NCBI RefSeq assembly: GCF_050320075.1
Contig: NZ_CP190018.1
DNA length: 64,000 nt
Strand: one strand, 5' to 3'
Source: Escherichia coli
GTDB taxonomy: Bacteria; Pseudomonadota; Gammaproteobacteria; Enterobacterales; Enterobacteriaceae
Shown: one piece after another, positions 7,083 to 46,858 of the stretch
Layout of the letters: the number at the start of each line of letters is the position of its first letter
Numbering within the stretch: the stretch's first letter is position 1
Position numbers and translations under genes: made by a program
Notes under the pieces: generated by a model
The model's input: the letters and a program-made list of their open reading frames with translations, nothing else
The model's database searches: none
Told to the model about the DNA's origin: nothing

Positions 7083-7102
7083 CTTTACCCTTCATCACTA
7101 AA

Positions 7103-7124: not shown

Positions 7125-7191
7125 ACGGGATTTTTTTTATGTCGATGTACACAACCGCCCAGCTGCTGGCGGCAAATGAGCAGAAATTTAA

Positions 7192-7199
7192 GTTTGATC
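7192..7199. repeat. target-site duplication GTTTGATC (left copy)
   Basis: Identical 8-mer directly flanks both ends of the IS. Confidence 0.85.
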
Positions 7200-7229
7200 G
7201 TAAGCGACTCGTCAGAACCGTATTGATAT

Positions 7230-8801: not shown

Positions 8802-8820
8802 ATCCTCACTTTACAACGGG

Positions 8821-9168
8821 TTATATGCGGATTCCAGCGCGTTCCGTTCGTTTCGGGTGCTTCCAGTTGATACCTTCAAGAAGCATGGATAACTGAGCCG
8901 GAGTAAGGTGCACCTTGCCGTCACGGGTGACTGGCCAGACGAAGCGGCCCCGCTCCAGGCGTTTGGTGAAGAGGCACAGTCCGTCACTGTCAGCCCACAA
9001 CACTTTTATCTGGTCACCCCGGCGTCCGCGGAAGATGAACAGGTGTCCGGAGAACGGGTCATCCTTCAGGACGTTCTGAACTTTTGATGCCAGGCCGTTA
9101 AAGCCATTTCGCATATCGGTGATACCTGCAACCAGCCAGATACGCGAACCTGCAGGGAGAGATATCAT
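8821..9168 (-). CDS. tnpB: IS66 Orf2 (TnpB) accessory protein
   Basis: 115 aa, typical IS66 orf2 sequence (…FIFRGRRGDQIKVLWADSDGLCLFTKRLE…); ATGA overlap with upstream orf. Confidence 0.8.
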   Translation of the reverse strand: MISLPAGSRIWLVAGITDMRNGFNGLASKVQNVLKDDPFSGHLFIFRGRRGDQIKVLWADSDGLCLFTKRLERGRFVWPVTRDGKVHLTPAQLSMLLEGINWKHPKRTERAGIRI

Positions 9169-9906: not shown

Positions 9907-10912
9907 CGCTGTTTCTGCGTCTCTTTTTCCGTGAGAGCTATCCCTTCACCACGGAGAAAGTCTATCTCTCACAAATTCCGGGACTGGTAAACATAGCGCT
10001 GTACGTTTCGCCGATTGTTTCCGGTGAGGTTATCCGTTCCCGTGGCGGCTCCACCTCTGAATTTACGCCGGGATATGTCAAGCCGAAGCATGAAGTGAAT
10101 CCGCAGATGACCCTGCGTCGCCTGCCGGATGAAGATCCGCAGAATCTGGCGGACCCGGCTTACCGCCGCCGTCGCATCATCCTGCAGAACATGCGTGACG
10201 AAGAGCTGGCCATTGCTCAGGTCGAAGAGATGCAGGCAGTTTCTGCCGTGCTCAAGGGCAAATACACCATGACCGGTGAAGCCTTCGATCCGGTTGAGGT
10301 GGATATGGGCCGCAGTGAGGCGAATAACATCACGCAGTCCGGCGGCACGGAGTGGAGCAAGCGTGACAAGTCCACGTATGACCCGACCGACGATATCGAA
10401 GCCTACGCGCTGAACGCCAGCGGAGTGGTGAATATCATCGTGTTTGATCCGAAAGGCTGGGCGCTGTTCCGTTCCTTCAAAGCCGTCAGGGAGAAGCTGG
10501 ATACTCGTCGCGGCTCTCATTCCGAGCTGGAGACAGCGGTGAAAGACCTGGGCAAAGCGGTGTCCTACAAGGGGATGTATGGCGATGTGGCCATCGTCGT
10601 GTATTCCGGACAGTACGTGGAAAACGGCGTCAAAAAGAACTTCCTGCCGGACAACACGATGGTGCTGGGGAACACTCAGGCACGCGGTCTGCGCACCTAT
10701 GGCTGCATTCAGGATGCGGACGCACAGCGCGAAGGCATTAACTCCTCTGCCCGTTACCCGAAAAACTGGGTGACCACCGGCGATCCGGCGCGTGAGTTCA
10801 CCATGATTCAGTCAGCACCGCTGATGCTGCTGGCTGACCCTGATGAGTTCGTGTCCGTACAACTGGCGTAATCGTGGCCCTTCGGGGCCATTTTCTCTCT
10901 GTGGAGGAGTCC

Positions 10913-11684: not shown

Positions 11685-12263
11685 ATGGCCATAAAAGGTC
11701 TTGAGCAGGCCGTTGAAAACCTCAGCCGTATCAGCAAAACGGCGGTGCCCGGTGCCGCCGCAATGGCCATTAACCGCGTTGCTTCATCCGCGATATCGCA
11801 GTCTGCGTCACAGGTTGCCCGTGAGACAAAGGTACGCCGGAAACTGGTAAAGGAAAGGGCCAGGCTGAAAAGGGCCACGGTCAAAAATCCGCAGGCCAGA
11901 ATCAGGGTTAACCGGGGGGATTTGCCCGTAATCAGGCTGGGTAATGCGCGGGTTGTCCTGTCCCGCCGCAGGCGTCGTAAAAAGGGGCAGCGTTCATCCC
12001 TGAAAGGTGGCGGCAGCGTGCTTGTGGTGGGAAACCGTCGTATTCCCGGCGCGTTTATTCAGCAACTGAAAAATGGCCGGTGGCATGTCATGCAGCGTGT
12101 GGCCGGGAAAAACCGTTACCCCATTGATGTGGTGAAAATCCCGATGGCGGTGCCGCTGACCACGGCGTTTAAACAGAATATTGAGCGGATACGGCGTGAG
12201 CGTCTTCCGAAAGAGCTGGGCTATGCGCTGCAGCATCAACTGAGAATGGTAATAAAGCGATGA
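11685..12263 (+). CDS. Z: tail completion protein Z
   Basis: 192 aa, lambda gpZ length/position. Confidence 0.9.
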   Translation: MAIKGLEQAVENLSRISKTAVPGAAAMAINRVASSAISQSASQVARETKVRRKLVKERARLKRATVKNPQARIRVNRGDLPVIRLGNARVVLSRRRRRKKGQRSSLKGGGSVLVVGNRRIPGAFIQQLKNGRWHVMQRVAGKNRYPIDVVKIPMAVPLTTAFKQNIERIRRERLPKELGYALQHQLRMVIKR

Positions 12264-12655
12264 AACATACTGAACTCCGTGCAGCCGTACTGGATGCACT
12301 GGAGAAGCATGACACCGGGGCGACGCTTTTTGATGGTCGCCCCGCTGTTTTTGATGAGGCGGATTTTCCGGCAGTTGCCGTTTATCTCACCGGCGCTGAA
12401 TACACGGGCGAAGAGCTGGACAGCGATACCTGGCAGGCGGAGCTGCATATCGAAGTTTTCCTGCCTGCTCAGGTGCCGGATTCAGAGCTGGATGCGTGGA
12501 TGGAGTCCCGGATTTATCCGGTGATGAGCGATATCCCGGCACTGTCAGATTTGATCACCAGTATGGTGGCCAGTGGCTATGACTACCGGCGCGACGATGA
12601 TGCGGGCCTGTGGAGTTCAGCCGATCTGACTTATGTCATTACCTATGAAATGTGA
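12260..12655 (+). CDS. U: tail terminator protein U
   Basis: 131 aa, lambda gpU length/position. Confidence 0.9.
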
Positions 12656-12662
12656 GGACGAT

Positions 12663-13403
12663 ATGCCAACACCAAATCCTCTGGCACCGGTGAAAGGGGC
12701 CGGGACCACACTGTGGGTTTATAAGGGGAACGGTGACCCTTATGCGAACCCGCTTTCAGACGTTGACTGGTCGCGTCTGGCAAAAGTTAAAGACCTGACA
12801 CCCGGCGAACTGACCGCTGAGTCCTATGACGACAGCTATCTCGATGATGAAGATGCGGACTGGACTGCGACCGGGCAGGGGCAGAAATCCGCCGGAGATA
12901 CCAGCTTCACGCTGGCGTGGATGCCCGGAGAGCAGGGGCAGCAGGCGCTGCTGGCGTGGTTTAATGAAGGTGATACCCGTGCCTATAAAATCCGCTTCCC
13001 GAACGGCACGGTCGATGTGTTCCGCGGCTGGGTCAGCAGTATCGGTAAGGCGGTGACGGCGAAGGAAGTGATCACCCGCACGGTGAAAGTCACCAATGTG
13101 GGACGTCCGTCGATGGCAGAAGATCGCAGCACGGTAACAGCGGTAACCGGTATGACCGTGACGCCAGCCAGCGCTTCCGTAGTGAAAGGGAAGAGCACCA
13201 CGCTGAGCGTGGCATTCCAGCCGGAAGGCGCAACCGACAAGAGCTTCCGTGCGGTGTCAGCGGATAAAACAAAAGCCACCGTGTCGGTCAGTGGTATGAC
13301 CATCACCGTGAATGGCGTTGCTGCAGGCAAGGTCAACATTCCGGTTGTATCCGGTAATGGTGAGTTTGCTGCGGTTGCAGAAATCACCGTCACCGCCAGT
13401 TAA
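12663..13403 (+). CDS. V: major tail tube protein V (with C-terminal Ig-like domain)
   Basis: 246 aa from internal Met ([22 protein letters not shown]...), lambda gpV-like. Confidence 0.95.
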
Positions 13404-13418
13404 TCCGGAGAATCAGAG

Positions 13419-13841
13419 ATGTTCCTGAAAACCGAATCATTTGAACATAACGGTGTGACCGTCACGCTTTCTGAACTGTCAGCCCTGCAGCGTATTGAGC
13501 ATCTCGCCCTGATGAAACGGCAGGCAGAACAGGCGGAGTCAGACAGCAACCGGAAGTTTACTGTGGAAGACGCCATCAGAACCGGCGCGTTTCTGGTGGC
13601 GATGTCCCTGTGGCATAACCATCCGCAGAAGACAAAGCAGCCTTCCATGAATGAAGCCGTTAAACAGATTGAGCAGGAAGTGCTTACCACCTGGCCCACA
13701 GAGGCAATTTCTCATGCTGAAAACGTGGTGTACCGGCTGTCTGGTATGTATGAGTTTGTGGTGAATAATGCCCCTGAACAGGAAGAGGACGCCGGGCCCG
13801 CAGAGCCTGTTTCTGCGGGAAAGTGTTCGACGGTGAGCTGA
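13419..13841 (+). CDS. G: tail assembly chaperone G
   Basis: 140 aa, lambda gpG-like. Confidence 0.9.
   Translation: MFLKTESFEHNGVTVTLSELSALQRIEHLALMKRQAEQAESDSNRKFTVEDAIRTGAFLVAMSLWHNHPQKTKQPSMNEAVKQIEQEVLTTWPTEAISHAENVVYRLSGMYEFVVNNAPEQEEDAGPAEPVSAGKCSTVS
13817..13823 (+). other. -1 programmed frameshift slippery heptamer G GGA AAG (G to G-T)
   Basis: Heptamer in the G frame (codons GGA AAG) 18 nt before the G stop; T frame open from 13823. Confidence 0.8.
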
Positions 13842-14257
13842 GTTTTGCCCTGAAACTGGCGCGTGAGATGGGGCGACCCGACTGGCGTGCCATGCTTGCC
13901 GGGATGTCATCCACGGAGTATGCCGACTGGCACCGCTTTTACAGTACCCATTATTTTCATGATGTTCTGCTGGATATGCACTTTTCCGGGCTGACGTACA
14001 CCGTGCTCAGCCTGTTTTTCAGCGATCCGGATATGCATCCGCTGGATTTCAGTCTGCTGAACCGGCGCGAGGCTGACGAAGAGCCTGAAGATGATGTGCT
14101 GATGCAGAAAGCGGCAGGGCTTGCCGGAGGTGTCCGCTTTGGCCCGGACGGGAATGAAGTTATCCCCGCTTCCCCGGATGTGGCGGACATGACGGAGGAT
14201 GACGTAATGCTGATGACAGTATCAGAAGGGATCGCAGGAGGAGTCCGGTATGGCTGA
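13823..14257 (+). CDS. T: tail assembly protein T portion (expected to be made as G-T fusion by -1 frameshift)
   Basis: 144-codon open frame overlapping G 3' end, lambda gpT-like. Confidence 0.85.
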   Translation: MFDGELSFALKLAREMGRPDWRAMLAGMSSTEYADWHRFYSTHYFHDVLLDMHFSGLTYTVLSLFFSDPDMHPLDFSLLNRREADEEPEDDVLMQKAAGLAGGVRFGPDGNEVIPASPDVADMTEDDVMLMTVSEGIAGGVRYG

Positions 14258-17137: not shown

Positions 17138-17835
17138 TGCAGGATATCCGGCAGGAAACACTGAATGAATGCACCCGTGCGGAGCAGTCGGCCAGCGTGG
17201 TGCTCTGGGAAATCGATCTGACAGAGGTCGGTGGAGAACGTTATTTTTTCTGTAATGAGCAGAACGAAAAAGGTGAGCCGGTCACCTGGCAGGGGCGGCA
17301 GTATCTGGCGTATCCCATTCAGGGGAGTGGTTTTGAACTGAATGGCAAAGGCACCAGTACGCGCCCCATGCTGGCAGTCTCTAACCTGTACGGCATGGTC
17401 ACCGGGATGGCGGAAGACCTGCAGAGTCTGGTCGGCGGAACGGTGGTCAGGCGTAAGGTTTACGCCCGTTTTCTGGATGCGGTGAACTTCGTCAACGGAA
17501 ACAGCGATGCCGATCCGGAGCAGGAGGTGATCAGCCGCTGGCGCATCGAACAGTGCAGCGAACTGAGCGCGGTCAGTGCCTCTTTTGTACTGTCCACACC
17601 GACGGAAACGGACGGCGCTGTTTTTCCGGGGCGCATCATGCTGGCCAACACCTGCACCTGGACCTATCGCGGTGATGAGTGCGGTTATCACGGTCCGGCG
17701 GTCGCGGATGAATATGACCAGCCGACGTCCGATATCACGAAGGATAAATGCAGCAAATGCCTGAGTGGCTGTAAGTTTCGCAATAATGTCGGCAACTTTG
17801 GCGGCTTCCTTTCCATTAACAAACTTTCGCAGTAA
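17137..17835 (+). CDS. L: tail tip protein L
   Basis: 232 aa, lambda gpL-like. Confidence 0.9.
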   Translation: MQDIRQETLNECTRAEQSASVVLWEIDLTEVGGERYFFCNEQNEKGEPVTWQGRQYLAYPIQGSGFELNGKGTSTRPMLAVSNLYGMVTGMAEDLQSLVGGTVVRRKVYARFLDAVNFVNGNSDADPEQEVISRWRIEQCSELSAVSASFVLSTPTETDGAVFPGRIMLANTCTWTYRGDECGYHGPAVADEYDQPTSDITKDKCSKCLSGCKFRNNVGNFGGFLSINKLSQ

Positions 17836-17840
17836 ATCCC

Positions 17841-18584
17841 ATGACAGAGACAGAATCAGCGATTCTGGCGCACGCCCGGCGATGTGCGCCAGCGGAGTCG
17901 TGCGGCTTCGTGGTGAGAACGCCGGAGGGGGAAAGATATTTTCCCTGCGTGAATATCTCCGGTGAGCCGGAGGATTATTTCCGGATGTCGCCGGAGGACT
18001 GGCTGCAGGCAGAGATGCAGGGTGAGATTGTGGCGCTGGTCCACAGTCATCCCGGTGGTCTGCCCTGGCTGAGTGAGGCTGACCGGTGGCTGCAGGTGCA
18101 GAGTGATTTGCCGTGGTGGCTGGTCTGCCGGGGGGCGATTCACAAGTTCCGCTGTGTGCCGCATCTCACCGGGCGGCGCTTTGAGCACGGGGTGACGGAC
18201 TGTTACACGCTGTTCCGGGACGCTTACCATCTGGCGGGGATTGAGATGCCGGATTTTACGCGGGAGGATGACTGGTGGCGTCACGGTCAGAATCTCTATC
18301 TGGATAATCTGGAGGCCACAGGGCTGTATCAGGTGCCGTTGTCAGCGGCGCAGCCGGGCGATGTGCTGCTGTGCTGTTTTGGTTCATCGGTGCCGAATCA
18401 CGCCGCAATTTACTGCGGCGACGGCGAGCTGCTGCACCATATTCCTGAACAACTGAGCAAACGAGAGAGGTATACCGACAAATGGCAGCGACGCACACAC
18501 TCCCTCTGGCGTCACCGGGCATGGCGCGCATCTGCCTTTACGGGGATTTACAACGATTTGGTCGCCGCATCGACCTTCGTGTGA
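17841..18584 (+). CDS. K: tail tip assembly protein K (MPN/JAMM-like motif HSHPGG plus NlpC/P60-like C-terminal part)
   Basis: 247-aa ORF; a shorter lambda-style annotation would start at Met 17985, but the metalloprotease-like motif region argues for the long form. Confidence 0.85.
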   Translation: MTETESAILAHARRCAPAESCGFVVRTPEGERYFPCVNISGEPEDYFRMSPEDWLQAEMQGEIVALVHSHPGGLPWLSEADRWLQVQSDLPWWLVCRGAIHKFRCVPHLTGRRFEHGVTDCYTLFRDAYHLAGIEMPDFTREDDWWRHGQNLYLDNLEATGLYQVPLSAAQPGDVLLCCFGSSVPNHAAIYCGDGELLHHIPEQLSKRERYTDKWQRRTHSLWRHRAWRASAFTGIYNDLVAASTFV

Positions 18585-19123
18585 AAACGGGGGCTGAAGC
18601 CATCCGGGCGCTGGCCACACAGCTCCCGGCGTTTCGTCAGAAACTGAGCGACGGCTGGTATCAGGTACGGATTGCCGGGCGTGATACAGGTGAAACGGAA
18701 TTATCAGCCCGTCTTAATGAACCGCTGGCAAATGGTGCTGTGATCCATATCGTGCCGCGTCTGGCAGGAGCCAAAAGTGGCGGTGTGTTTCAGGCTGTGC
18801 TGGGGGCGGCTGTTATGGCGGTTGCTATATGGATGCCGGGGGTAGGAATTATGGCGAGTAATCTGCTGTTTTCTCTCGGTGCCAGTATGACGCTTGGCGG
18901 TGTTGCACAGATGCTGGCCCCTAAACCCAAAACCCCCCGCACACAGACAACGGATAACGGCAAACAGAACACCTATTTTTCTTCACTGGATAATATGGTT
19001 GCCCAGGGCAATGTTCTGCCCGTTCTGTACGGTGAAATGCGCGTGGGATCACGTGTGGTATCTCAGGAGATCAGCACAGCAGATGAAGGTGATGGTGGTC
19101 AGGTTGTGGTGATTGGTCGCTGA
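18482..19123 (+). CDS. I: tail tip assembly protein I
   Basis: 213 aa, overlaps K 3' end in another frame as in lambda. Confidence 0.85.
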   Translation: MAATHTLPLASPGMARICLYGDLQRFGRRIDLRVKTGAEAIRALATQLPAFRQKLSDGWYQVRIAGRDTGETELSARLNEPLANGAVIHIVPRLAGAKSGGVFQAVLGAAVMAVAIWMPGVGIMASNLLFSLGASMTLGGVAQMLAPKPKTPRTQTTDNGKQNTYFSSLDNMVAQGNVLPVLYGEMRVGSRVVSQEISTADEGDGGQVVVIGR

Positions 19124-19183
19124 TGAAAAACGTTTTATGTGAAACCGCCTCCGGGCGGTTTTATCGTTTATGGAGCATGACGA

Positions 19184-22100
19184 ATGGGTAAAGGCAGCAG
19201 TAAGGGGCATACCCCGCGCGAAGCGAAGGACAACCTGAAGTCCACGCAGCTGCTGAGTGTGATCGATGCCATCAGCGAAGGGCCGGTTGAAGGTCCGGTG
19301 GATGGATTAAAAAGCGTGCTGCTGAACAGTACGCCGGTGCTGGACAGTGAGGGGAATACCAATATATCCGGCGTCACGGTGGTGTTCCGGGCCGGTGAGC
19401 AGGAGCAGACTCCGCCGGAGGGATTTGAATCCTCCGGTTCCGAGACGGTGCTGGGTACGGAAGTGAAATATGACACGCCGATCACCCGCACCATCACGTC
19501 GGCAAACATCGACCGTCTGCGCTTTACCTTCGGTGTGCAGGCACTGGTGGAAACCACCTCAAAGGGGGACAGGAATCCATCGGAAGTCCGCCTGCTGGTT
19601 CAGATACAACGTAACGGTGGCTGGGTGACGGAAAAAGACATCACCATTAAGGGTAAAACCACCTCGCAGTATCTGGCCTCAGTGGTGGTGGATAACCTGC
19701 CGCCGCGCCCGTTTAATATCCGGATGCGCAGGATGACGCCGGACAGCACCACAGACCAGCTGCAGAACAAAACGCTCTGGTCGTCATACACCGAAATCAT
19801 CGATGTGAAACAGTGCTACCCGAACACGGCACTGGTCGGCGTGCAGGTGGACTCGGAGCAGTTCGGCAGCCAGCAGGTGAGCCGTAATTATCATCTGCGC
19901 GGGCGTATTCTGCAGGTGCCGTCGAACTATAACCCGCAGACGCGGCAATACAGCGGTATCTGGGACGGGACGTTTAAACCGGCATACAGCAACAACATGG
20001 CCTGGTGTCTGTGGGATATGCTGACCCATCCGCGCTACGGCATGGGGAAGCGTCTCGGTGCGGCGGATGTGGACAAATGGGCGCTGTATGTCATCGGCCA
20101 GAATTGCGACCAGTCGGTGCCGGATGGCTTTGGTGGCACGGAGCCGCGCATCACCTGTAATGCCTGGCTGACCACGCAGCGCAAGGCGTGGGATGTGCTC
20201 AGTGATTTCTGCTCGGCGATGCGCTGTATGCCGGTATGGAACGGGCAGACGCTGACGTTCGTGCAGGACCGGCCATCGGATAAGGTGTGGACCTATAACC
20301 GCAGTAATGTGGTGATGCCGGATGATGGCGCGCCGTTCCGCTACAGCTTCAGCGCCCTGAAGGACCGTCATAATGCCGTTGAGGTGAACTGGATTGACCC
20401 GAATAACGGCTGGGAGACGGCGACAGAGCTTGTGGAGGACACGCAGGCCATTGCCCGTTACGGTCGTAACGTTACGAAGATGGATGCCTTTGGCTGTACC
20501 AGCCGGGGGCAGGCACACCGCGCCGGGCTGTGGCTGATTAAAACAGAACTGCTGGAAACGCAGACCGTGGATTTCAGCGTCGGCGCAGAAGGGCTTCGCC
20601 ATGTACCGGGCGATGTTATTGAAATCTGTGATGATGACTATGCCGGTATCAGCACCGGTGGTCGTGTGCTGGCGGTGAACAGCCAGACCCGGACGCTGAC
20701 GCTCGACCGTGAAATCACGCTGCCATCCTCCGGTACCACGCTGATAAGCCTGGTTGACGGAAGTGGCAATCCGGTCAGCGTGGAGGTTCAGTCCGTCACC
20801 GACGGCGTGAAGGTAAAAGTGAGCCGTGTTCCTGACGGTGTTGCTGAATACAGCGTATGGGGGCTGAAGCTGCCGACGCTGCGCCAGCGACTGTTCCGCT
20901 GCGTGAGTATCCGTGAGAACGACGACGGCACGTATGCCATCACCGCCGTGCAGCATGTGCCGGAAAAAGAGGCCATCGTGGATAACGGGGCGCACTTTGA
21001 CGGCGAACAGAGTGGCACGGTGAATGGTGTCACGCCGCCAGCGGTGCAGCACCTGACCGCAGAAGTCACTGCAGACAGCGGGGAATATCAGGTGCTGGCG
21101 CGCTGGGATACGCCGAAGGTGGTGAAGGGTGTGAGCTTTATGCTTCGCCTGACCGTGGCAGCGGATGACGGCAGTGAGCGGCTGGTCAGCACGGCCCGGA
21201 CGACGGAAACCACATACCGCTTCAGGCAGCTGGCGCTGGGAAGCTACAGGCTGACAGTCCGGGCGGCAAATGCCTGGGGGCAGCAGGGCGATCCTGCATC
21301 GGTATCGTTCCGGATTGCCGCACCGGCAGCGCCGTCGCGGATTGAGCTGACGCCGGGCTATTTTCAGATAACCGCCACGCCCCATCTTGCCGTTTATGAT
21401 CCGACGGTACAGTTTGAGTTCTGGTTCTCGGAAAAGCGGATTGCGGATATCAGGCAGGTTGAAACTACAGCCCGCTATCTTGGCACGGCGCTGTACTGGA
21501 TAGCTGCCAGTATCAATATCAAACCGGGCCATGATTATTATTTTTACATCCGCAGTGTGAACACCGTTGGCAAATCGGCATTTGTGGAGGCTGTTGGCCA
21601 GCCGAGTGATGATGCATCCGGCTATCTGGATTTTTTCAAAGGCGAGATAGGGAAAAGCCATCTGGCTCAGGAGCTGTGGACGCAGATTGATAACGGTCAG
21701 CTTGCGCCTGACCTGGCTGAAATCAGGACGTCCATTACGGATGTCAGCAATGAAATCACGCAGACCGTCAATAAGAAACTGGAAGACCAGAGTGCGGCAA
21801 TTCAGCAGATACAGAAGGTTCAGGTTGATACAAATAATAACCTGAACAGCATGTGGGCTGTGAAGCTGCAGCAGATGCAGGACGGACGCCTTTATATCGC
21901 GGGTATTGGTGCCGGTATTGAGAACACCCCTGACGGCATGCAGAGTCAGGTGCTGCTGGCGGCGGACAGGATTGCGATGGTTAATCCTGCGAATGGCAAC
22001 ACAAAGCCGATGTTTGTTGGTCAGGGCGATCAGATATTCATGAACGAAGTGTTCCTGAAATATCTGACGGCTCCCACCATTACCAGCGGCGGTAATCCTC

Positions 22101-22663
22101 CGGCATTTTCCCTGACACCGGACGGGCGGCTGACGGCGAAAAATGCCGATATCAGCGGTAACGTGAATGCGAACTCCGGGACGCTCAACAACGTCACGAT
22201 TAACGAGAACTGCCGGGTTCTGGGAAAACTGTCCGCGAACCAGATTGAAGGCGATCTCGTTAAAACAGTGGGTAAAGCTTTCCCCCGGGACTCCCGTGCA
22301 CCGGAACGGTGGCCATCAGGGACCATTACCGTCAGGATTTATGACGATCAGCCGTTTGACCGACAGATTGTTATTCCGGCGGTGGCATTCAGCGGCGCTA
22401 AGCATGAGAGAGAGCATACTGATATTTACTCCTCATGCCGTCTGATAGTGCGGAAAAACGGTGCTGAAATTTATAACCGTACCGCGCTGGATAATACGCT
22501 GATTTACAGTGGCGTTATTGATATGCCTGCCGGTCACGGTCACATGACGCTGGAGTTTTCGGTGTCAGCATGGCTGGTAAATAACTGGTATCCCACAGCA
22601 AGTATCAGCGATTTGCTGGTTGTGGTGATGAAGAAAGCCACCGCAGGCATCAGTATCAGCTGA
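19184..22663 (+). CDS. J: central tail fibre / host specificity protein J
   Basis: 1159 aa, lambda gpJ-like order and N-terminal/central sequence. Confidence 0.9.
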
Positions 22664-22682
22664 ATTTTATAGCCCCAATACG

Positions 22683-22706
22683 GGCGTCAGAAATGACGCC
22701 TTTTTT
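22683..22706 (+). terminator. hairpin plus T-run after J
   Basis: ggcgtc-agaaat-gacgcc followed by tttttt. Confidence 0.5.
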
Positions 22707-22730
22707 ATTGCAGAAAAGCGAGAGGTAATT

Positions 22731-23330
22731 ATGCGTAAATTATGTGCTGTTATTCTGTCCACAGTAGTCTGGCTGGTCGCCGCTGGTACGCCAGCGAGCG
22801 CAGCAGAGCATCAGTCCACACTAAGCGCCGGGTATCTTCAGACCCATACTGATATGCCCGGCAACGATGACCTGAAGGGCATTAACGTGAAATACCGTTA
22901 TGAATTTACGGACACGCTGGGGCTGGTGACGTCATTCAGTTATGCCAATGCCAAAGATGAGCAAAAAACGCATTACAGCGATACCCGCTGGCATGAAGAT
23001 TCAGTGCGTAACCGCTGGTTCAGCATGATGGCGGGGCCGTCTGTACGCGTGAATGAATGGTTCAGTGCTTATGCGATGGCAGGTGTGGCTTACAGCCGTG
23101 TTTCGACTTTTTCCGGGGATTATCTCCGCGTAACTGACAGCAAGGGGAAAACGCACGATGTGCTGACCGGAAGTGATGACGGTCGCCACAGCAACACGTC
23201 TCTGGCGTGGGGGGCTGGCGTGCAGTTTAACCCGACCGAATCCGTGGCCATTGATATTGCTTATGAAGGTTCCGGCAGTGGCGACTGGCGCACTGACGGT
23301 TTCATCGTGGGTGTCGGTTATAAATTCTGA
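22731..23330 (+). CDS. lom: Lom outer-membrane protein (Ail/Lom family)
   Basis: 199 aa with signal peptide, beta-barrel-type sequence ending ...GVGYKF; lambda lom position. Confidence 0.9.
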   Translation: MRKLCAVILSTVVWLVAAGTPASAAEHQSTLSAGYLQTHTDMPGNDDLKGINVKYRYEFTDTLGLVTSFSYANAKDEQKTHYSDTRWHEDSVRNRWFSMMAGPSVRVNEWFSAYAMAGVAYSRVSTFSGDYLRVTDSKGKTHDVLTGSDDGRHSNTSLAWGAGVQFNPTESVAIDIAYEGSGSGDWRTDGFIVGVGYKF

Positions 23331-23357
23331 TTAGCCAGATAACACAGTGTTATGACA

Positions 23358-23383
23358 GCCCGCCGGTTCAGGCGGGCTTTTTT
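23358..23383 (+). terminator. hairpin plus T-run after lom
   Basis: gcccgcc-ggttca-ggcgggc followed by tttttt. Confidence 0.5.
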
Positions 23384-23388
23384 GTGGA

Positions 23389-25794
23389 GTGGATATGGCA
23401 GCAGTAAAAATCTCAGGTGTGCTGAAAGATGGTGCGGGAAAACCAATACAGAACTGCACTATTCAACTGAAGGCAAAGCGTAACAGCACCACGGTACTGG
23501 TGAACACGGTGGCCTCTGAAAATCCGGATGAAGCCGGGCGTTACAGCATGGATGTTGAGTATGGCCAGTACAGCGTCACCCTGCTGGTTGAAGGTTTTCC
23601 GCCTTCGCATGCCGGGAGCATTACCGTCTATGAAGGTTCCAGACCAGGTACGCTGAATGATTTTCTCGGTGCCATGACGGAAGAGGATGTCATGCCGGAG
23701 GCATTGCGCCGTTTTGAGGAAATGGTGGAAGAAGCGGCACGCAACGCCGAAGCCGCCTCTCAGAGCGCAGCGGCGGCAAAGAAATCCGAAACGGCTGCGG
23801 CATCATCGAAGAACGCGGCGAAAACCTCAGAAACGAATGCAGCTAATAGTGCACAGGCGGCAGCGACCTCAAAGACTGCATCGGCAAACTCCGCGACAGC
23901 AGCCAAAAAATCAGAAACCAACGCGAAAAATAGCGAGACAGCCGCAAAGACGAGCGAAACCAACGCAAAGTCCAGCCAGACGGCAGCGAAAACCAGCGAA
24001 ACGAATGCCAAAGCCAGTGAAACTGCGGCAAAAAACAGCCAGGTTGCAGCAGCCCAAAGCGAGAGCGCGGCAGCCGGTTCTGCGACTTCAGCAGCTGGAT
24101 CAGCAACTGCTGCGGCTAACAGCCAGAAAGCTGCGAAGACGAGTGAAACTAACGCAAAGTCCAGCCAGACGGCAGCGAAGACCAGCGAAACGAATGCCAA
24201 AGCCAGCGAAACTGCGGCGAAAAACAGCCAGGTTGCAGCAGCCCAAAGCGAGAGCGCGGCAGCTGGTTCTGCAAGCGCGGCGGCTGCTTCTGCCACTGCA
24301 TCAGCCAACAGTCAAAAAGCGGCAAAAACCAGTGAAACCAATGCAAAGACAAGCGAGACTGCAGCGGCGAACTCGGCGAAAGCATCGGCAGCAAGCCAGA
24401 CAGCAGCTAAAGCAAGTGAAGACGCAGCCAGAGAGTATGCAAGTCAGGCAGCAGAGCCGTATAAATATGTCTTACAGCCACTGCCTGATGTGTGGATACC
24501 GTTTAACGATTCACTGGATATGATTACGGGCTTTTCGCCGTCATATAAAAAAATTGTTATTGGTGATGATGAAATAACGATGCCTGGCGACAAGGTTGTT
24601 AAGTTTAAACGCGCATCAACTGCCACATATATCAATAAATCAGGCGTATTTAGTGTTGCTAAAATTGATGAGCCACGATTTGAAAAAGAAGGTTTATTGA
24701 TTGAAGGACAGCGCACTAACTATTTTGTTAAATCCAATACTCCCGCTGAATGGACGAGTACCAGCAATATCGATAAAACTAATAATGGTGTTGATGAATT
24801 TGGTTTTTCATATGCCAAAATGCGAACAAAAGATAATATGACAGGACAATCATCTGCACTTAGTCTGCATACATGCAGTGCATCCCGGGGGATTGATGTT
24901 AGTGGCGATAATAAGTATTGCACTGTTTCATGCAGGGTTAAAGCTCCTGATGGTCTTCGTTGTCGTTTGCGTTTTGAAAAATACGATGGGTCGGTTTATA
25001 CATTTTTAGGAGATGCTTATTTAACTTTCGGAACTCTGATAATAGAAAAAACTGGCGGAGCAGCCAATAGAATAGCAGCTACTGCAACTAAAGATCCGGT
25101 TACAGGGTGGATTTTCTATGAGGCAACTATAGAAGCTGTTGAAGGTGAAGCCTTAATTGGCGCAATGATTCAGTATGCGCCGAAAAAAGGTGGTATAACT
25201 GAAGCGGGAGATTATATTTACCTTGCAACACCACAATTTGAAAACGGCGGATGTGCTTCATCTTTTGTTATTACGACAACTGCACCCGCAACCCGCTCCA
25301 GTGATATGGTGACGATCCCAACTGAAAATAATATCTATAATAGACCGCTTACGTGTCTTGTCGAGGTCAATAGAAATTGGGGCGATATTCCTCCTAATGT
25401 AGCACCGCGTATTTTTGATTTTTCTGGTGTGCCACCTATTGAGTCAATTACATACGCTTTTAACACAACTGAGAAATATTACGGTCAGCTTTATATACAA
25501 ACTTATAAAGCGTTGACAAGTACTTACGTTTCTAGTGTGTTTGCTGGTCGAACTGATGTTCGAAAATTCATTGGTGGTTTTAATATTTATTCTGATGGTA
25601 CTAAACGAGTAGTTTCTAACGGTGAGGCTACTAAAACTATGAAAACGGAGTGGACGGGCGTAAAAACACGGACCTTTATTCGAATTGGAGGTCAAGCCAC
25701 ATCGGGAACTCGTCATCTATTCGGCCATTTGAGAAATCTTCGTCTCTGGCATAAAGAATTAACTGATGCGCAAATGGGGGAGAGTATTAAATGA
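23389..25794 (+). CDS. stf: side tail fibre protein (Stf-like), chimeric: lambda-like N-terminus, repeat shaft, AT-rich divergent C-terminal domain
   Basis: 801 aa; N-terminal ~100 aa match lambda Stf as recalled (MAVKISGVLKDG...); internal Ala/Ser/Thr/Lys repeats; composition shifts to AT-rich from about nt 24480. Confidence 0.85.
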   Translation: MDMAAVKISGVLKDGAGKPIQNCTIQLKAKRNSTTVLVNTVASENPDEAGRYSMDVEYGQYSVTLLVEGFPPSHAGSITVYEGSRPGTLNDFLGAMTEEDVMPEALRRFEEMVEEAARNAEAASQSAAAAKKSETAAASSKNAAKTSETNAANSAQAAATSKTASANSATAAKKSETNAKNSETAAKTSETNAKSSQTAAKTSETNAKASETAAKNSQVAAAQSESAAAGSATSAAGSATAAANSQKAAKTSETNAKSSQTAAKTSETNAKASETAAKNSQVAAAQSESAAAGSASAAAASATASANSQKAAKTSETNAKTSETAAANSAKASAASQTAAKASEDAAREYASQAAEPYKYVLQPLPDVWIPFNDSLDMITGFSPSYKKIVIGDDEITMPGDKVVKFKRASTATYINKSGVFSVAKIDEPRFEKEGLLIEGQRTNYFVKSNTPAEWTSTSNIDKTNNGVDEFGFSYAKMRTKDNMTGQSSALSLHTCSASRGIDVSGDNKYCTVSCRVKAPDGLRCRLRFEKYDGSVYTFLGDAYLTFGTLIIEKTGGAANRIAATATKDPVTGWIFYEATIEAVEGEALIGAMIQYAPKKGGITEAGDYIYLATPQFENGGCASSFVITTTAPATRSSDMVTIPTENNIYNRPLTCLVEVNRNWGDIPPNVAPRIFDFSGVPPIESITYAFNTTEKYYGQLYIQTYKALTSTYVSSVFAGRTDVRKFIGGFNIYSDGTKRVVSNGEATKTMKTEWTGVKTRTFIRIGGQATSGTRHLFGHLRNLRLWHKELTDAQMGESIK
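23945..24322 (+). repeat. two tandem ~189-bp (63-codon) near-identical repeats inside the stf shaft
   Basis: aacgcaaagtccagccagacggcagcgaa... recurs at 23962 and 24151; embedded in a longer array of shorter AAKTSETNAK-type units. Confidence 0.75.
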
Positions 25795-26072
25795 AAGATT
25801 TAACACTCAAATTTGCAGACAGGGCCGACTTTTCGGCCTTTATGGAGAGCATTGGCTATTATGATGACGAGTCGATGCAGGATGATATTCTTATTGACGT
25901 GATAGGTAATGTGTACAAAGAAACCGGAGAACTGACTGAAGATGGCGAACCGGTATGTGTTAAGGAAGACGGATATTTTGTAAACGTGCGCATCATTAAT
26001 GATTCGCAAATATCGTCAATATTCGATGAATACGTGGTTGCTGTTGAGCATCAACTTCGTGGCTGGATGTGA
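25791..26072 (+). CDS. acidic 93-aa hypothetical protein, translationally coupled to stf
   Basis: ATG overlaps stf stop (ATGA); AT-rich; no family recognised. Confidence 0.55.
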   Translation: MKDLTLKFADRADFSAFMESIGYYDDESMQDDILIDVIGNVYKETGELTEDGEPVCVKEDGYFVNVRIINDSQISSIFDEYVVAVEHQLRGWM

Positions 26073-26081
26073 GGAAGAAAA

Positions 26082-27122
26082 ATGGCTACATCGACAGTAA
26101 TTCCTGATGACATCAAAACGCTAAAATCCGACGTTAGCAAATTAAAAAACGATCAAGGAAGCTACGCAACAAAATTATATGTAGACAGCAAAGATGAAAT
26201 CGTTGGTGACTGGTCTGTTTCATGGTATCAGCAGGTATTGCCAACTAGCGGAGCTATATTTGGGAGAAAACTCCGCTCAACTCACAGGACGGCAGGTGTT
26301 GAGGATGCGTATTGCGAACTATACCTCAAAAAATGGATAGACAGTCCAGGTAACGCAATGGCGCGCCTTAACCTGAACGATAACGGGACAAACATTTGCT
26401 GGGACTTTACCAACCTTTATGGCGGTACGATGATTTTTCCCGGTGACAGCGGATACCTCAAAATGGGTAACTGCCTTATGTCATACAGCAAGCGTGGAAG
26501 TAACGCGCTTATTAAATTTGATTACACCGACACATTACAGATCAAATATGCCAATCATGGGTCAACCATGACATTAAACACACAGGGAACCGCTTATGCT
26601 GGTGTTACTGCTCAATTGTGGGGCAACTCCAGCCGTCCTGTTGTTTATGAAGTCGGTGTTGATGGTGGCGCTTATATGTTCTATGCGCAGAAAAATACCG
26701 ATAACACCTATATGTTAAGCGTTAATGGTGCATGTCATGCCACCGCATTTAACCAGCATTCCGACCGGGATCTGAAAGACAACATTCAGGTGATCGATAA
26801 TGCAACCGACCGCATCCGTAAAATGAACGGCTATACATACACGCTTAAAGAAAACGGTATGCCCTATGCTGGTGTCATTGCACAGGAAGCTCTGGAAGCA
26901 ATCCCAGAAGTTGTAGGTTCCGCAATGAAATATCAGGACGGTGCGAGCGGATCGGAAGGTGAAGAAGGTGAACGTTATTACACAGTAGATTATTCTGGTG
27001 TTACTGGCTTGCTTGTTCAGGTAGCCAGAGAGTCAGACGACAGAATAACAGCACTGGAAGAAGAAAACGCAGAATTAAGACAAAGATTATCTGCAATTGA
27101 TGCGGCGCTTGCGTCTAAATAA
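26082..27122 (+). CDS. tail-fibre-like protein with C-terminal intramolecular chaperone/self-cleaving domain (peptidase S74-like)
   Basis: 346 aa; good SD GAGGAAG before ATG; C-terminal ...NQHSDRDLKDNIQVIDNATDRIRKMNGYTYTLKENGMPYAGVIAQEALEAIPEVV... followed by a coiled-coil tail resembles the autoproteolytic chaperone domain of endosialidase/T5 L-shaped fibre proteins. Confidence 0.65.
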   Translation: MATSTVIPDDIKTLKSDVSKLKNDQGSYATKLYVDSKDEIVGDWSVSWYQQVLPTSGAIFGRKLRSTHRTAGVEDAYCELYLKKWIDSPGNAMARLNLNDNGTNICWDFTNLYGGTMIFPGDSGYLKMGNCLMSYSKRGSNALIKFDYTDTLQIKYANHGSTMTLNTQGTAYAGVTAQLWGNSSRPVVYEVGVDGGAYMFYAQKNTDNTYMLSVNGACHATAFNQHSDRDLKDNIQVIDNATDRIRKMNGYTYTLKENGMPYAGVIAQEALEAIPEVVGSAMKYQDGASGSEGEEGERYYTVDYSGVTGLLVQVARESDDRITALEEENAELRQRLSAIDAALASK

Positions 27123-27158
27123 TATTAAGGGGCCGAGCGCCCCGTTTTATTGGGTAGG

Positions 27159-27458
27159 ATGAAAATGGATATAACACCTTTCCTTCATGCGCTTTGTGCT
27201 GTGGCTGCGCAGCTACTGATTGGTCTTTTTACCGGGAACTGGGCTTACGGGGCGATAGCCGGTTGTACGTTCTTCATTGCGCGTGAACACACCCAGGCAG
27301 AATATCGCTGGATCGAAATGTTCGGGCATGGCAAGCGAATGAATATGCCGTGGTGGGGCGGTTTTGATCCACGCGCGTGGGATGTGGCAAGCCTGATGGA
27401 TTTTGCTGTGCCGGTGGTGGCGTGTCTGCTGGTCTGGCTGTTGGTTAATCGTGGGTGA
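27159..27458 (+). CDS. small hydrophobic membrane protein (2-3 predicted TM helices), function unknown
   Basis: Track ORF begins with TTG at 27150; ATG at 27159/27165 more plausible; hydrophobic stretches [16 protein letters not shown] and [15 protein letters not shown]. Confidence 0.5.
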
Positions 27459-27608
27459 AAAAAGGTGGGCTGTATATGCAACGGAGGAAGAAACCACGTT
27501 GCTGGAAGCCTGGAAGAAGTATCGGGTGTTGCTGAACCGTGTTAATACAACAACTGCACCGGATATTGAATGGCCAACAGTACCCATTATCGAATAGTGC
27601 ATTACGAA

Positions 27609-27650
27609 CTGCAGGATATTATATGGGATAATATTCTGCAGTTTATTGGG
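27609..27650 (+). terminator. 14-bp-stem hairpin plus T-rich tail ending the fibre-operon transcript
   Basis: ctgcaggatattat-atggg-ataatattctgcag then tttattgg. Confidence 0.4.
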
Positions 27651-27670
27651 GCTGTATTTTAAAAAGGTGT

Positions 27671-29002
27671 TTATTTTGAGTGAATTATCACCTTGTTTTT
27701 TCCGGTTCTTTTGGCTTGATATAACGCTTTGTCGGCATTGACTAACATTTCAGATGGACTGAGATTATTCTCTTTTGAAGCAAAGCAACCAATACTGACA
27801 GTTATTTTCTCAGGTCCATGCGATAATAATTTTTCCGAGCATTGCTCTTCAATGTTTTTTCTGATTCGCTCTGCAATTGATAGCAAGAGTTTTTGAGTAT
27901 TACCTTTAATGATAATACCGAACTCCTCACCGCCTAAGCGCCCTAATATATCCTCTTTCCTGATGGATTTTTTTATTATTCTGGTAACCATTACTATGAC
28001 TTGATCACCCATATGATGCCCCCATTTGTCATTGATGCTTTTGAAACTGTCAATATCTAACATTATTACTGAGAAATCATGGTGTTTTGATATATTCTTC
28101 AATGAGTCAATAAAGTATCTTCTATTGTATGTATTCGTTAGTGGATCATGAATTGCCATATGATTAGCATGATTTAATTTCCTGAAAACATAATACATGA
28201 GTGTTGAAATGATATAAATCATTGATATCAATTCAAGAAATTTTGTCATGTACCATGCAGGATGGGATTTATCAATAAAATACAATAAAATTAGATTATT
28301 GCATACTGACACTATACTAATAAGTATTATACACAACCATATTTTTGAGTAATTACGTATGCTGATGCATGAGCTGATAAGTAATACAAGCCAAAATACT
28401 GATATTATTTTGGTGTACACGATATTCCACGTCGACAAATGACGATTCAGCGAGTATTGTATAATATTAAGACTATATTTTATATGGTCACTGCTTAGAT
28501 TTTTTGCTACAAACGGAGTAATAAAAAGAATTAATATTGACAAAACAACAATTATTATGTTTCTTTTATCTTCTAAAATACTTTTATTTTTAACATTGGT
28601 GGAATAAACAGCCAGAAAGATTATAGATATAAAGCTGAACTGACGGAATAGATAATATATTGCGATATCATTTGATTTCTGATAGATTGTAGATAAATCG
28701 TTACCTAACGGAGATAAAGAAATAATAGCCACTTCTAATAAATAATACGTGTTGCTCAAAAACGCGAATGAAAGAATTAAGAGATAACTTTGTCTCTGAT
28801 TAGAAACATAGTAAAGCAATAGAAAAATAAAAATCATCAGGTTTATGAAAAAAAGCCCAATAATGAAAACACTATAACTTATTTGTGTTGTTTGTGTTAT
28901 GTATATTCCATTATTTTCATGCAGTAACAAAAATATAATAGAGATGCATGAAAATAAAAAGATGAAGATTTTTATTTTTATAGGTACCTGGTTGATAATC
29001 AT
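27671..29002 (-). CDS. membrane-anchored GGDEF-domain diguanylate cyclase (N-terminal polytopic membrane domain of unrecognised type)
   Basis: 443 aa; SD AGGTG 6 nt upstream; C-terminal GGDEF motifs incl. RKEDILGRLGGEEF (I-site RxxD + GGEEF); about 8 hydrophobic helices N-terminal; extremely AT-rich. Confidence 0.85.
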   Translation of the reverse strand: MIINQVPIKIKIFIFLFSCISIIFLLLHENNGIYITQTTQISYSVFIIGLFFINLMIFIFLLLYYVSNQRQSYLLILSFAFLSNTYYLLEVAIISLSPLGNDLSTIYQKSNDIAIYYLFRQFSFISIIFLAVYSTNVKNKSILEDKRNIIIVVLSILILFITPFVAKNLSSDHIKYSLNIIQYSLNRHLSTWNIVYTKIISVFWLVLLISSCISIRNYSKIWLCIILISIVSVCNNLILLYFIDKSHPAWYMTKFLELISMIYIISTLMYYVFRKLNHANHMAIHDPLTNTYNRRYFIDSLKNISKHHDFSVIMLDIDSFKSINDKWGHHMGDQVIVMVTRIIKKSIRKEDILGRLGGEEFGIIIKGNTQKLLLSIAERIRKNIEEQCSEKLLSHGPEKITVSIGCFASKENNLSPSEMLVNADKALYQAKRTGKNKVIIHSK

Positions 29003-29594
29003 GTACGCACCTGAGAATGATATATATATAATATGTATCGCTACAAATAACGATAATTTCTTACTGGTGATAGTATACTATTATTCTGGTTAATCGCTGT
29101 CAAATTGATGATTTTGGTTAGTATTGCAATAGCGAAGGGTTTGATCCGGTAAGACTGGCTAGGCAAGGCTATACCAAAAAATCAGTGTAGGTTCAGAAAA
29201 CGATGCACCATACAATCATCAATAATTTCAAATTGTCCATTGTGCATAAATCATAAAGAAAACCGCAGCACGTCGTATGCAAGAACGTGCTGCGGTTGGC
29301 TGGTGAGCTTTCGATAGTGCGAGTATTGAATGATTTCCAGACGTTACCGATTTTATATAACTGCAGTGGAATTATTCAACACACAGGCAAAACGGAATAA
29401 GCTGAGAAAAAAGCGTGCTTTCCCAATCTGGGGCAAATCACGTCTGAATGACACCTGAAAACAGGTGGTAGCCTCAAGAAGGCTTGGAATATTCTTCTTT
29501 AATGTTATGTAATTCATTGATTTTTCTTGTACGATTTTAAGACATTTATTCCAAGAAAAATTTTTAACTCTTTGATTTTTCGACTCTGTATCAT

Positions 29595-29656
29595 CGGTCT
29601 CGAAAACCGGAGTAGGGGCAACTCTACCGGGGGTTCAAATCCCCCTCTCTCCGCCA
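29595..29656 (+). other. 3' 61 nt of tRNA-Ser (serU-type, anticodon CGA region to CCA): prophage attR core copy, not a complete tRNA
   Basis: ggtctcgaaaaccggagtaggggcaactctaccgggggttcaaatccccctctctccgcca matches the 3' two-thirds of serU as recalled; the 5' acceptor/D-arm is absent upstream. Confidence 0.85.
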
Positions 29657-30323
29657 CCTTATCAATGACTTATCTCCCGACTTCCCGCCTTGCTTTTCCT
29701 AAACAGAACAATCGTAGAATATTCTTGAAGGGTTAGATCGTCACTGTTTTCTGTTCGATACTGTGACATTCAGCACTTGATTCGCTATGGATCTGACAGG
29801 AAGGTTTCGAGCGAAAATCTGCAGTTATTCAGTCGTTTTCTTATCGGTCACCATTATTCTTTTAGACATTGATCCTACGAAGCTGCCGCAAAGTTGGTGG
29901 TGGGAACTGAAGTTGCGTAGAGAAGGAGTCAATAATTGAGCCAAAAAAGGAACGCGGCCGTCAGATTAAAGCCGCGGGACAAAGTCCATAATTTCCAAGA
30001 GTTGTTGAATTTCCCAACTTTTTTGAAAGCCTTTGTATCATACTAACAAGTAAAAAAGGTTTAAATACCAAAATTAACCTATATTTCTGGTTAGCTTTAC
30101 CATGACAGATGACTTGCTCCTGGAGACATTGGCGCAGCCAGTCTGTATTGGTGAGTTGTGTATTTATTGTTCGCCGTTTTCTCAGTTTTTTCTACAGACA
30201 TAATAAAAAAGACACGTCTCAAGCATGAGCGTGTCTGAGTTTGTCTTATTTATTTGTCTTGGTAAATTATTGTCGTTACTACTAGGCACTGTTCTGTTAA
30301 ATAATTGAATCAGCGAAAAAAAA

Positions 30324-37104: not shown

Positions 37105-38298
37105 TTAGAACTGGTAGACTAAGCCCACAGCAACGATATCATCGGTAGCGATGCCGTTTGCTTTGTAGAAGTCGTCGTCGTTGTCCAGCAGGTTGATTTT
37201 GTAATCAACGTAGGTGGACATGTTTTTGTTGAAGTAGTAAGTCGCACCAATATCAACGTATTTAACCAGATCTTTATTGGTGTAACGTGGGTCGCCGTTG
37301 CCGTCATGAGCCCAACCACCTAAATCCTTACCTTTAGATTGCAGGTAAGCGATGGACGGGCGTAGGCCGAAGTCGAACTGATACTGAGCAACAACTTCAA
37401 AGTTTTGGGTTTTGTTCGCAATACCACCTCTGTCAATGTCGTTATTGTCTTTTCCGCTGCCATATGCAGTCATATTACGTGTTTCTGCATACATTGCCGC
37501 TAAATAGACATTATTCGCATCATATTTAGCACCGACTGTCCATGCTTCAGCTGTTTCACCACCAGCATATTTATTCGAGCGTTGCTCACCTAAACCAGTA
37601 GCACGTTGGTTATCAGTACGGTCAGAGTTTGAATATGCAGCCCCGAGGCTTAACCCGAAGTCAAAGTCATAGGAAGTGGACATACCGAAACCGTCACCAT
37701 TTTCTTTAGACAGTTTACGATTATTACCATTACCAGAACCTTCTTGATCCCAAAGCCCACCCGATCCTTCATTATTACCCTGATATTGCAGAGCAAAGTT
37801 CAGGCCATCGACCTGACCAAAGAAGCCATTGTTACGGTAGGTTGCAACACCATTAGCACGACCGTTCAGGAAGTTGTCGGCACCAGCATAGGTATCGCCA
37901 CCAAATTCTGGCAGCATATCGGTCCATGCTTCAATGTCATATACGACACCGTAGTTACGACCATAGTCGAAAGTACCATTCTGACCAAAGCCTAAACCTG
38001 CAAATGCCAGACGCGTTGCGGGATTACCTTTGTCGCTTTCAGGACCGTTTGCGCCAATGTTAAATTCCCACTGACCATAACCAGTGAATTGGTCAGCGAT
38101 CTGAGTTTCACCTTTGAAACCGATACGGGCATATGACATGTCGCCATCGCTGCCAGCATCATCAGAGAAGTAGTGCAGGCCCGCTACTTTTCCGTACAAA
38201 TCCAGTTTATTACCATCTTTATTATAGACTTCAGCCGCATTTGCTGCGCCAGCAACTAATAACGCCGGGACCAGCATTGCCAGAACTTTTCTTTTCAT
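37105..38298 (-). CDS. yedS: OmpC/PhoE-family general porin (yedS-type), apparently intact
   Basis: Starts [27 protein letters not shown]..., ends ...GLVYQF; track ORF extends 10 codons upstream. Confidence 0.85.

Positions 38299-44330: not shown

Positions 44331-46858
<2,528 letters not shown>

Follow-up and report, generated by a model that had tools for sequence, protein, structure and literature searches.

The diguanylate cyclase gene dgcX as probable cargo of a lambda-like prophage at serU in Escherichia coli

Gene Identity and Domain Architecture

The window analyzed here is a stretch of 64,000 nucleotides from Escherichia coli (assembly GCF_050320075.1, contig NZ_CP190018.1). It is nearly identical to E. 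coli Ec-U3 (NZ_CM192149.1), with 3 mismatches over 64 kb, so that the annotation of Ec-U3 can be transferred to it. A lambda-like late operon reads rightward through J, lom and the tail fibre genes, and convergent with its end lies a minus-strand frame that stays open for approximately 1.3 kb at 29.7% GC (Table 1). Its start codon is backed by homologs with the same first methionine. An open frame of this length would hardly arise by chance at such a GC content. With the profile matches, this confirms that the 443-aa ORF reported opposite to the late operon in a preliminary description of this DNA is real.

Table 1. Features of the dgcX locus, with positions in the window
Feature	Position	Strand	Basis
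Module common to dgcX copies at different loci (from 356 bp before to 194 bp after the gene, with the tfa remnant)	27477..29358	-	BLAST
3' remnant of tfa, last late-operon feature before the slot	27478..27597	+	RefSeq annotation of Ec-U3 mapped to the window
dgcX cassette (DNA present here, missing from an empty-slot serU prophage)	27576..29254	-	BLAST against L007 (empty slot) and L006 (other cargo)
AT-rich hairpin with weak U tract, 28 nt past the dgcX stop, possible terminator	27607..27643	-	Fold -16 kcal/mol, z=-5.9
Coding sequence of dgcX, 443 codons plus stop (ATG at 29002, stop at 27671)	27671..29002	-	ORF; identity to DgcX of 55989; Pfam and NCBIfam matches
GGDEF catalytic domain, residues 283-437	27692..28156	-	PF00990, E=4.7e-44, full model length
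A-site GGEEF, residues 357-361	27920..27934	-	Read from translation
I-site RKED (RxxD, allosteric c-di-GMP product inhibition), residues 348-351	27950..27961	-	Sequence
MASE4 membrane sensor domain, residues 40-274	28181..28885	-	PF17158, E=3e-35
Shine-Dalgarno-like AGGTG, 5 nt before the ATG	29008..29012	-	Sequence; kept in 4/4 aligned loci
Best sigma-70-like promoter candidate, TTGACA-17 nt-TAGTAT, ~73 nt before the ATG	29075..29103	-	Inferred from consensus scan, 10/12 matches
Conserved boundary element of ~100 bp, containing a GC-rich hairpin of 14 bp (29261-29297) and, after it, UUUUCUUUAU	29255..29360	-	Fold -24.8 kcal/mol, z=-5.2
attR, a perfect 62-bp copy of the 3' portion of tRNA-Ser serU (tRNA positions 29-90)	29595..29656	+	Comparison with serU

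The encoded protein is identical to DgcX of enteroaggregative E. coli (EAEC) 55989 at 436 of 443 residues over the full length (98.4%; 7 substitutions), and at 438 of 443 to an attB-type copy in which the published primer sites are present. Primer dgcX-u-18, used for a dgcX::lacZ fusion (Supplementary Table S3 of PMC4287979), matches the window exactly at 28989-29011. Strain 55989 is among those for which dgcX was first defined, and in its genome the 443-aa MASE4-GGDEF gene has a tail-fibre assembly gene on one side and ybhB on the other. DgcX orthologs have been defined by more than 75% cover and more than 50% identity (Cimdins-Ahne et al., 2023; PMC10459773), and the high full-length identity to EAEC/O104:H4 DgcX places the window protein among them. 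The ORF is dgcX, an already characterized E. coli diguanylate cyclase gene named in 2014 (Richter et al., 2014; PMC4287979) and taken up in the later study cited above. The novelty implied in the preliminary description is thereby lost, and the work proposed there (Pfam, distribution, expression, Congo-red and motility analyses) is essentially already in the literature.

Profile searches matched both domains of the protein. The PF17158 match spans model positions 4-237 of 239, and the TIGR00254 (NCBIfam) score of 162 bits exceeds the cutoff of 37.4. The N-terminal region, first described as a sensor that could not be assigned to a family, is MASE4, a domain also common to DgcT and CdgI.

Catalytic and Inhibitory Sites

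The glutamates of the GGEEF motif are E359 and E360, a numbering that equals that of the published E359A/E360A mutants (PMC10459773). Residues D316, N324, D333 and K431 align with D327, N335, D344 and K442 of PleD (1W25), with K435 as a conservative substitute for PleD R446. Judged by this alignment, the metal-, guanine- and phosphate-binding residues are all present or conservatively replaced, and the active site is not degenerate relative to PleD. DgcX of the window is thus predicted to be a catalytically complete GGDEF cyclase able to convert GTP to c-di-GMP. The phenotypes of a near-identical DgcX allele were lost in GGEAF and GGAAF mutants (PMC10459773).

The RKED motif stands five residues before GGEEF, as was read from the sequence at the outset. 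Its R348 and D351 are invariant in an alignment of 20 homologs. The allele carried by an island between argW and dsdC has RKDD at this site.

The MASE4 Membrane Domain

Since a full-length AlphaFold model used as Foldseek query had matched only solved GGDEF domains, the MASE4 part was modeled and searched alone. The model of residues 1-282 (pLDDT 81.9, pTM 0.83) contains eight helices, and the bundle of eight transmembrane helices predicted by the AlphaFold models covers residues 8-283. A hydropathy scan gave approximately 7-8 hydrophobic segments, in line with the roughly eight hydrophobic helices first counted by eye. In the model, the Lys/Arg-rich loops 135-145 and 215-219 lie on one face and the opposite face has short loops only, the longest of these, 169-193, being a small beta hairpin. 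Invariant residues of the domain include N111, D112, R120, W192 and E257. With respect to the predicted helices the charged loops obey the positive-inside rule, a topology in which the N-terminus and the GGDEF domain would both be cytoplasmic. The predicted fold of MASE4 is GPCR-like, a hint from modeling that would be a small addition to the literature.

Prophage Context and Attachment Site

The remnant of tfa lies 73 bp downstream of the dgcX stop, and the same layout of dgcX next to the end of the tail fibre genes was found in six other genomes. On the other side, a 62-bp repeat of the serU 3' end lies 593 bp beyond dgcX. ARAGORN detected no tRNA in the window because the att copy is only a 62-bp tRNA fragment; it was found by direct comparison with serU. 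At the other end of the prophage, as seen in Ec-U3, a frameshifted integrase abuts the full serU and mtfA. In prophage-free K-12 the order is zinT-yodB-serU-mtfA and no prophage is present there. The repeat, together with the complete serU and the integrase at the far end, indicates a prophage in serU with the repeat as attR and dgcX inside it, which upholds the earlier placement of the gene at the attR end as cargo of the prophage. In L002, a copy at lambda attB, the 15-bp lambda core GCTTTTTTATACTAA separates ybhB from dgcX; the core is outside dgcX, so the gene is inside attR there as well.

The window also contains dgcQ (44331-46025) and the fli operons (48673-59652). These neighbors had been located correctly in the preliminary description, and the functional tie to dgcX suggested there was dropped: 78% of copies lie elsewhere, and the serU site is used in 29 of 770 dgcX genomes, less than 4% of copies. 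The closeness of dgcX to dgcQ and fli is a consequence of the serU integration site.

Promoter Region and Flanking Hairpins

The AGGTG motif before dgcX, first noted as a Shine-Dalgarno element of its own, is Shine-Dalgarno-like, its spacing being 5 nt and not the 6 nt first given. Upstream of it, the best candidate promoter is identical in the attB-type allele. Promoter-like sites in the upstream region numbered 13, as compared with 11.4 in shuffled sequences, which is no excess. The window is near-identical to the attB-type copy up to position -356, where the homology stops, and in the 250 bp before the ATG one base differs from that reporter-tested allele. The published upstream primer dgcX-d-412 had no match in the window within 3 mismatches. 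Its site is absent because the homology ends at -356, and this is no evidence against the identity of the gene.

The boundary element is terminator-like on the dgcX strand and forms the upstream edge of the cargo slot. It is present in prophages with an empty slot, with dgcX and with a catalase operon, and occurs twice in the prophage of locus L005. All Rfam matches in the window (IS009, CssrB and others) were below the gathering thresholds; that to CssrB overlaps the boundary element. A terminator scan of the dgcX locus found none, the two strong flanking hairpins failing the loop and U-tract rules.

A Variable Cargo Slot

Comparison of prophages shows what can stand between tfa and the boundary element. 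The 1.88-kb dgcX module is 98.6% identical to the attB copy (L002) and 90% identical to the copy in the argW-dsdC island (L003). One sister prophage at serU (L007) has both flanks in common with the window and an empty slot, with 27 bp between the end of tfa and the hairpin element; another (L006) carries a con-10/YciE/YciF/Mn-catalase operon in place of dgcX. In prophages of the L005 type, a type II restriction-modification pair lies directly upstream of dgcX, bracketed by two hairpin elements. Among the genomes inspected, the cassette occurs at three or more loci and is next to tfa each time. These sequence comparisons fit a variable cargo slot whose contents are probably swapped by recombination among mosaic lambdoid prophages.

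The base composition of dgcX (29.7% GC) differs from that of the phage late region (54.3%) and of the chromosomal part of the window (49.4%), and so bears out the earlier suggestion that its AT-richness points to a separate acquisition. The gene thus has the marks of a moron: it is inside the att bounds, it is present or absent among homologous prophages and its composition is atypical. The sequence evidence favors dgcX as true prophage cargo, acquired apart from the phage backbone.

Distribution and Carriage

Of 5426 complete E. coli genomes, 770 (14%) carry the gene, 766 of them at a coverage of at least 80%, and the ORF is unbroken in 766 genomes. Insertion sites were counted with junction queries at thresholds of at least 80% coverage, dgcX-specific sequence being required and, for serU, also flanking chromosomal DNA. 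Prophages that lack dgcX have the hairpin element and b-region too, and the queries were therefore built on larger dgcX-specific parts. The lambda-attB type accounts for 604 genomes, by a query that can also be satisfied by dgcX plus a lambda-type arm. The argW-dsdC island accounts for about 86, in agreement with the 85 genomes that have an allele of ~94% identity. The serU type seen in the window was counted in 29 genomes by junction query, which leaves, by difference, about 50 with dgcX at other locations. Full-length homologs were found only in Escherichia and, at ~40% identity, in Citrobacter, in agreement with published work (PMC10459773).

A search of 50,697 phage records gave no match to dgcX DNA, and tblastn found only isolated GGDEF domains with at most 63% coverage. 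No copy was found in the PLSDB plasmids. All three of the dgcX prophages inspected end to end are damaged, an anecdotal sample (n=3) that proves nothing. In that of the window, an IS66-family element separates the head-decoration gene from the capsid gene and the integrase is frameshifted; that of STEC711 has an 11-kb satellite-like element within the capsid gene, and that of 55989 a frameshifted large terminase gene (terL). Neither the phage records nor these three defective prophages thus provided a particle-forming phage that carries dgcX. The absence from phages and the damage to the prophages suggest that dgcX was retained after prophage domestication.

Expression, Phenotype and Proposed Role

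A single-copy dgcX::lacZ fusion covering -412 to +18 showed the highest expression of any E. coli diguanylate cyclase (DGC) gene and depended on RpoD and RpoS (PMC4287979). Overexpression of DgcX increased cellulose independently of csgD and decreased swimming, effects for which GGEEF was needed (PMC10459773); an increase of CsgD and curli in some backgrounds is a further published phenotype. That a c-di-GMP source at this locus could affect biofilm and motility, as proposed in the preliminary description, had therefore been shown earlier for dgcX (PMC4287979; PMC10459773). Deletion of dgcX in the commensal Fec101 had minor effects only (PMC10459773), and given this result the physiological weight of the gene may be small. 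With a single base differing in the 250 bp before the ATG from the attB-type allele, the allele of the window is expected to act like published dgcX.

Taken together, we consider it very likely that the locus contains dgcX as a horizontally spread MASE4-GGDEF cyclase gene that forms self-contained cargo in a serU lambda-like prophage and raises c-di-GMP in the lysogen. DgcX would convert two GTP to c-di-GMP, with binding of the product at the RKED I-site restraining its output, and MASE4 presumably gates dimerization or activity in response to a signal. The cassette, with its own promoter region and flanked by hairpins, would occupy the place between the tfa stop and the hairpin element, in the b-region of the serU prophage. 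Integration would cut dgcX off from pL transcription and make it rely on its own promoter, and the upstream hairpin may insulate it from read-through. Expressed in this manner independently of phage functions, the gene would raise the c-di-GMP level of the lysogen.

The reading of dgcX as cargo has to be weighed against a literature that is ambivalent and places the gene 'adjacent' to prophage DNA throughout (PMC4287979; PMC10333796). On a rival reading, dgcX would be chromosomal DNA beside prophages that is outside the mobile element and is occasionally moved by specialized transduction. None of the sequenced phage genomes searched carries it, which would fit such an origin. The attachment sites argue otherwise: the att repeat at serU and the lambda core at attB both lie outside dgcX, and no extra att core is present between tfa and dgcX. 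Furthermore, in prophages of different att specificity the cassette fills one and the same slot, bounded by the tfa stop and the hairpin element. A conserved chromosomal gene should also be found in prophage-free relatives, and K-12 lacks dgcX at serU and at all the other loci concerned. Origin as flanking chromosomal DNA is therefore very improbable, and the placement inside att at serU and lambda attB, in a defined slot with alternative contents, speaks against the published statement that the gene is not part of a mobile element. A catalytically silent protein, either a c-di-GMP receptor or scaffold like CdgI or the product of a decaying and silenced remnant, is hardly credible. Its appeal is that the window prophage is defective and that very AT-rich DNA is often silenced, but GGEEF and the catalytic residues are intact, the ORF is unbroken in those 766 genomes, the phenotypes need GGEEF and the reporter fusion was stronger than that of any other E. 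coli DGC gene.

What dgcX does for its carrier is a separate matter. A main role in exclusion or defense, in which DgcX shields the lysogen or prophage, e.g., by a c-di-GMP-driven matrix that masks receptors, appears quite unlikely to us. The b-region is a typical site for defense-type cargo, the restriction-modification pair adjoins dgcX in the same slot of other prophages, and c-di-GMP alters phage susceptibility elsewhere, as with VpvC of V. cholerae (mentioned in PMC10333796). On the other hand, PADLOC gave 0 families at E<=0.001 for DgcX, the alternative cargo of the slot is a stress operon (catalase/YciEF) and not a defense system, and the known DgcX phenotypes are biofilm and motility. 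In the literature on dgcX we found no paper tying the gene to phage resistance, and a search for prophage-encoded cyclases in lysogenic conversion returned nothing relevant to dgcX. A bolder combination is speculative and, in our estimate, unlikely: dgcX would be true lambdoid cargo kept for the benefit of the prophage, such as matrix masking of receptors or retention of lysogens in biofilms, and at the same time MASE4 would form a GPCR-like ligand pocket of seven helices, joined by an extra one, and would sense a lipophilic signal from the gut or host.

As dgcX is the most strongly expressed cyclase gene of the species, its recognition at a rarely used integration site of a urinary-type strain is a useful annotation and no discovery. 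The gene, its family and its phenotypes were already known; small additions are the serU site, the placement inside att, the contents of the slot, the locus counts, the absence from phage collections and the hint at a GPCR-like fold.

Comparison with Known Systems

GGDEF proteins are known from phages, but these differ from DgcX in architecture. GGDEF genes occur in Bacillus phage SP-15 and Escherichia phage vB_EcoS-683R6, with ~36-38% identity over the domain, and phage YuA has a short GGDEF-only protein (cited in PMC10333796). None of these phage proteins has MASE4 or covers more than 63% of DgcX, and PHROG matches are confined to the C-terminus. Among lambdoid morons and b-region cargo (lom, bor and genes beyond tfa), dgcX is alike in composition, promoter-like region, hairpins, att bounds and presence or absence. 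Unlike these, it is not carried by any sequenced free phage, and the examples inspected are in damaged prophages.

Two full-length paralogs are encoded by K-12, in line with the published papers. DgcT (YcdT; 37% identity, E=3e-84) likewise has MASE4, an active GGEEF and RxxD. It differs in being encoded in the core chromosome, beside pgaABCD, by a gene of 38.6% GC, compared with 29.7% for dgcX, and dgcT is very weakly expressed (PMC4287979). CdgI (YeaI; 38% identity, E=5e-91) has MASE4 and an intact I-site, and is also chromosomal.

The closest counterpart is DgcX of 55989 and O104:H4, to which the strong biofilm and adherence phenotype of enteroaggregative and O104:H4 E. coli is in part attributed. 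It agrees with the window in architecture, in the positions of GGEEF and RKED, in promoter-proximal sequence and in its place after the tail-fibre assembly gene. It differs in seven residues, in the region upstream of -356 and in the integration site, since there the prophage is at lambda attB and in the window it is at serU.

Cargo position and possible boundary element

The stretch between the 3' remnant of the tail fibre assembly gene tfa and the hairpin element does not always carry the diguanylate cyclase gene dgcX. A sister serU prophage has a con-10/YciE-YciF/manganese catalase operon, with a GC-rich terminator of its own, in precisely the slot that dgcX takes in the window. In locus L005, where dgcX is identical to the window copy, a restriction endonuclease and methyltransferase pair adjoins it upstream, and this pair is flanked by two copies of the ~100-bp hairpin element (96% and 100%). 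Cargo cassettes may recombine at this element or be delimited by it.

Both sides of dgcX gave sub-threshold Rfam matches, to IS009 in the tfa remnant (69.8 bits; gathering threshold 117) and to CssrB, a Shigella sRNA, at the hairpin element (44 bits; gathering threshold 76).

The dgcX allele of the argW-dsdC island has 94% nucleotide identity and 416 of 443 identical amino acids. Its product-inhibition site reads RKDD, not RKED, and its putative promoter is without the TTGACA -35 hexamer. The island itself is decayed, a 96-bp tfa remnant being its sole tail gene.

Coordinates of the features discussed (L, loci in other E. coli genomes, own coordinates)
Feature	Sequence	Position	Setting
Head-decoration gene	window	6750-7082	serU prophage
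ISCro1 (tnpA, tnpB, transposase)	window	7230-9845	serU prophage
Major capsid gene	window	9909-10871	serU prophage
IS009 match	window	27456-27554	tfa 3' remnant
CssrB match	window	29199-29294	hairpin element
Hairpin element	window	29255-29360	upstream of dgcX
220-bp sequence	window	30104-30323	yodB position
Porin gene	window	37105-38298	between drpB and hchA
DUF5503 gene, integrase fragment	window	59719-61117	adjoining fliE
dgcX allele	L003 (NZ_AP022036.1)	8001-9332	argW-dsdC island
Type II restriction endonuclease, DNA cytosine methyltransferase	L005 (NZ_CP101222.1)	2766-6355	directly upstream of dgcX
con-10/YciE-YciF ferroxidase/ferritin-like/manganese catalase operon	L006 (NZ_OZ546922.1)	5204-7417	sister serU prophage
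Major capsid gene with ~11-kb insert	L013 (NZ_CP041416.1)	about 17139-29296	lambda-attB prophage with dgcX, strain STEC711
Large terminase gene	L014 (NC_011748.1)	12120-14044	dgcX prophage, EAEC 55989

Chromosomal surroundings

Between zinT and the serU-proximal sequence, the window lacks yodB (cytochrome b561), 220 bp standing in place of the 995 bp with yodB in strain 20 and K-12. The porin gene annotated ompC is intact; in K-12 this locus carries the yedS pseudogene. The DUF5503 gene (frameshifted) and the 99-bp integrase fragment are probably leftovers of another integrated element.

Lesions in dgcX-bearing prophages

Each of the three dgcX prophages inspected has a lesion affecting a gene for morphogenesis or integration. 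In the window, the IS66-family element ISCro1 separates the head-decoration and major capsid genes, and the integrase, which lies beyond the window, is frameshifted; together these suggest that the serU prophage is defective. The third case is EAEC 55989, whose large terminase gene is annotated as frameshifted.

In STEC711, the major capsid gene is interrupted by the insert, which encodes an integrase, a primase, an Icd-like protein, an SSB and an Abi-family protein, as well as major capsid, head decoration and small terminase proteins of its own. The insert looks like a capsid-forming, PICI-like satellite residing within the capsid gene of its helper.
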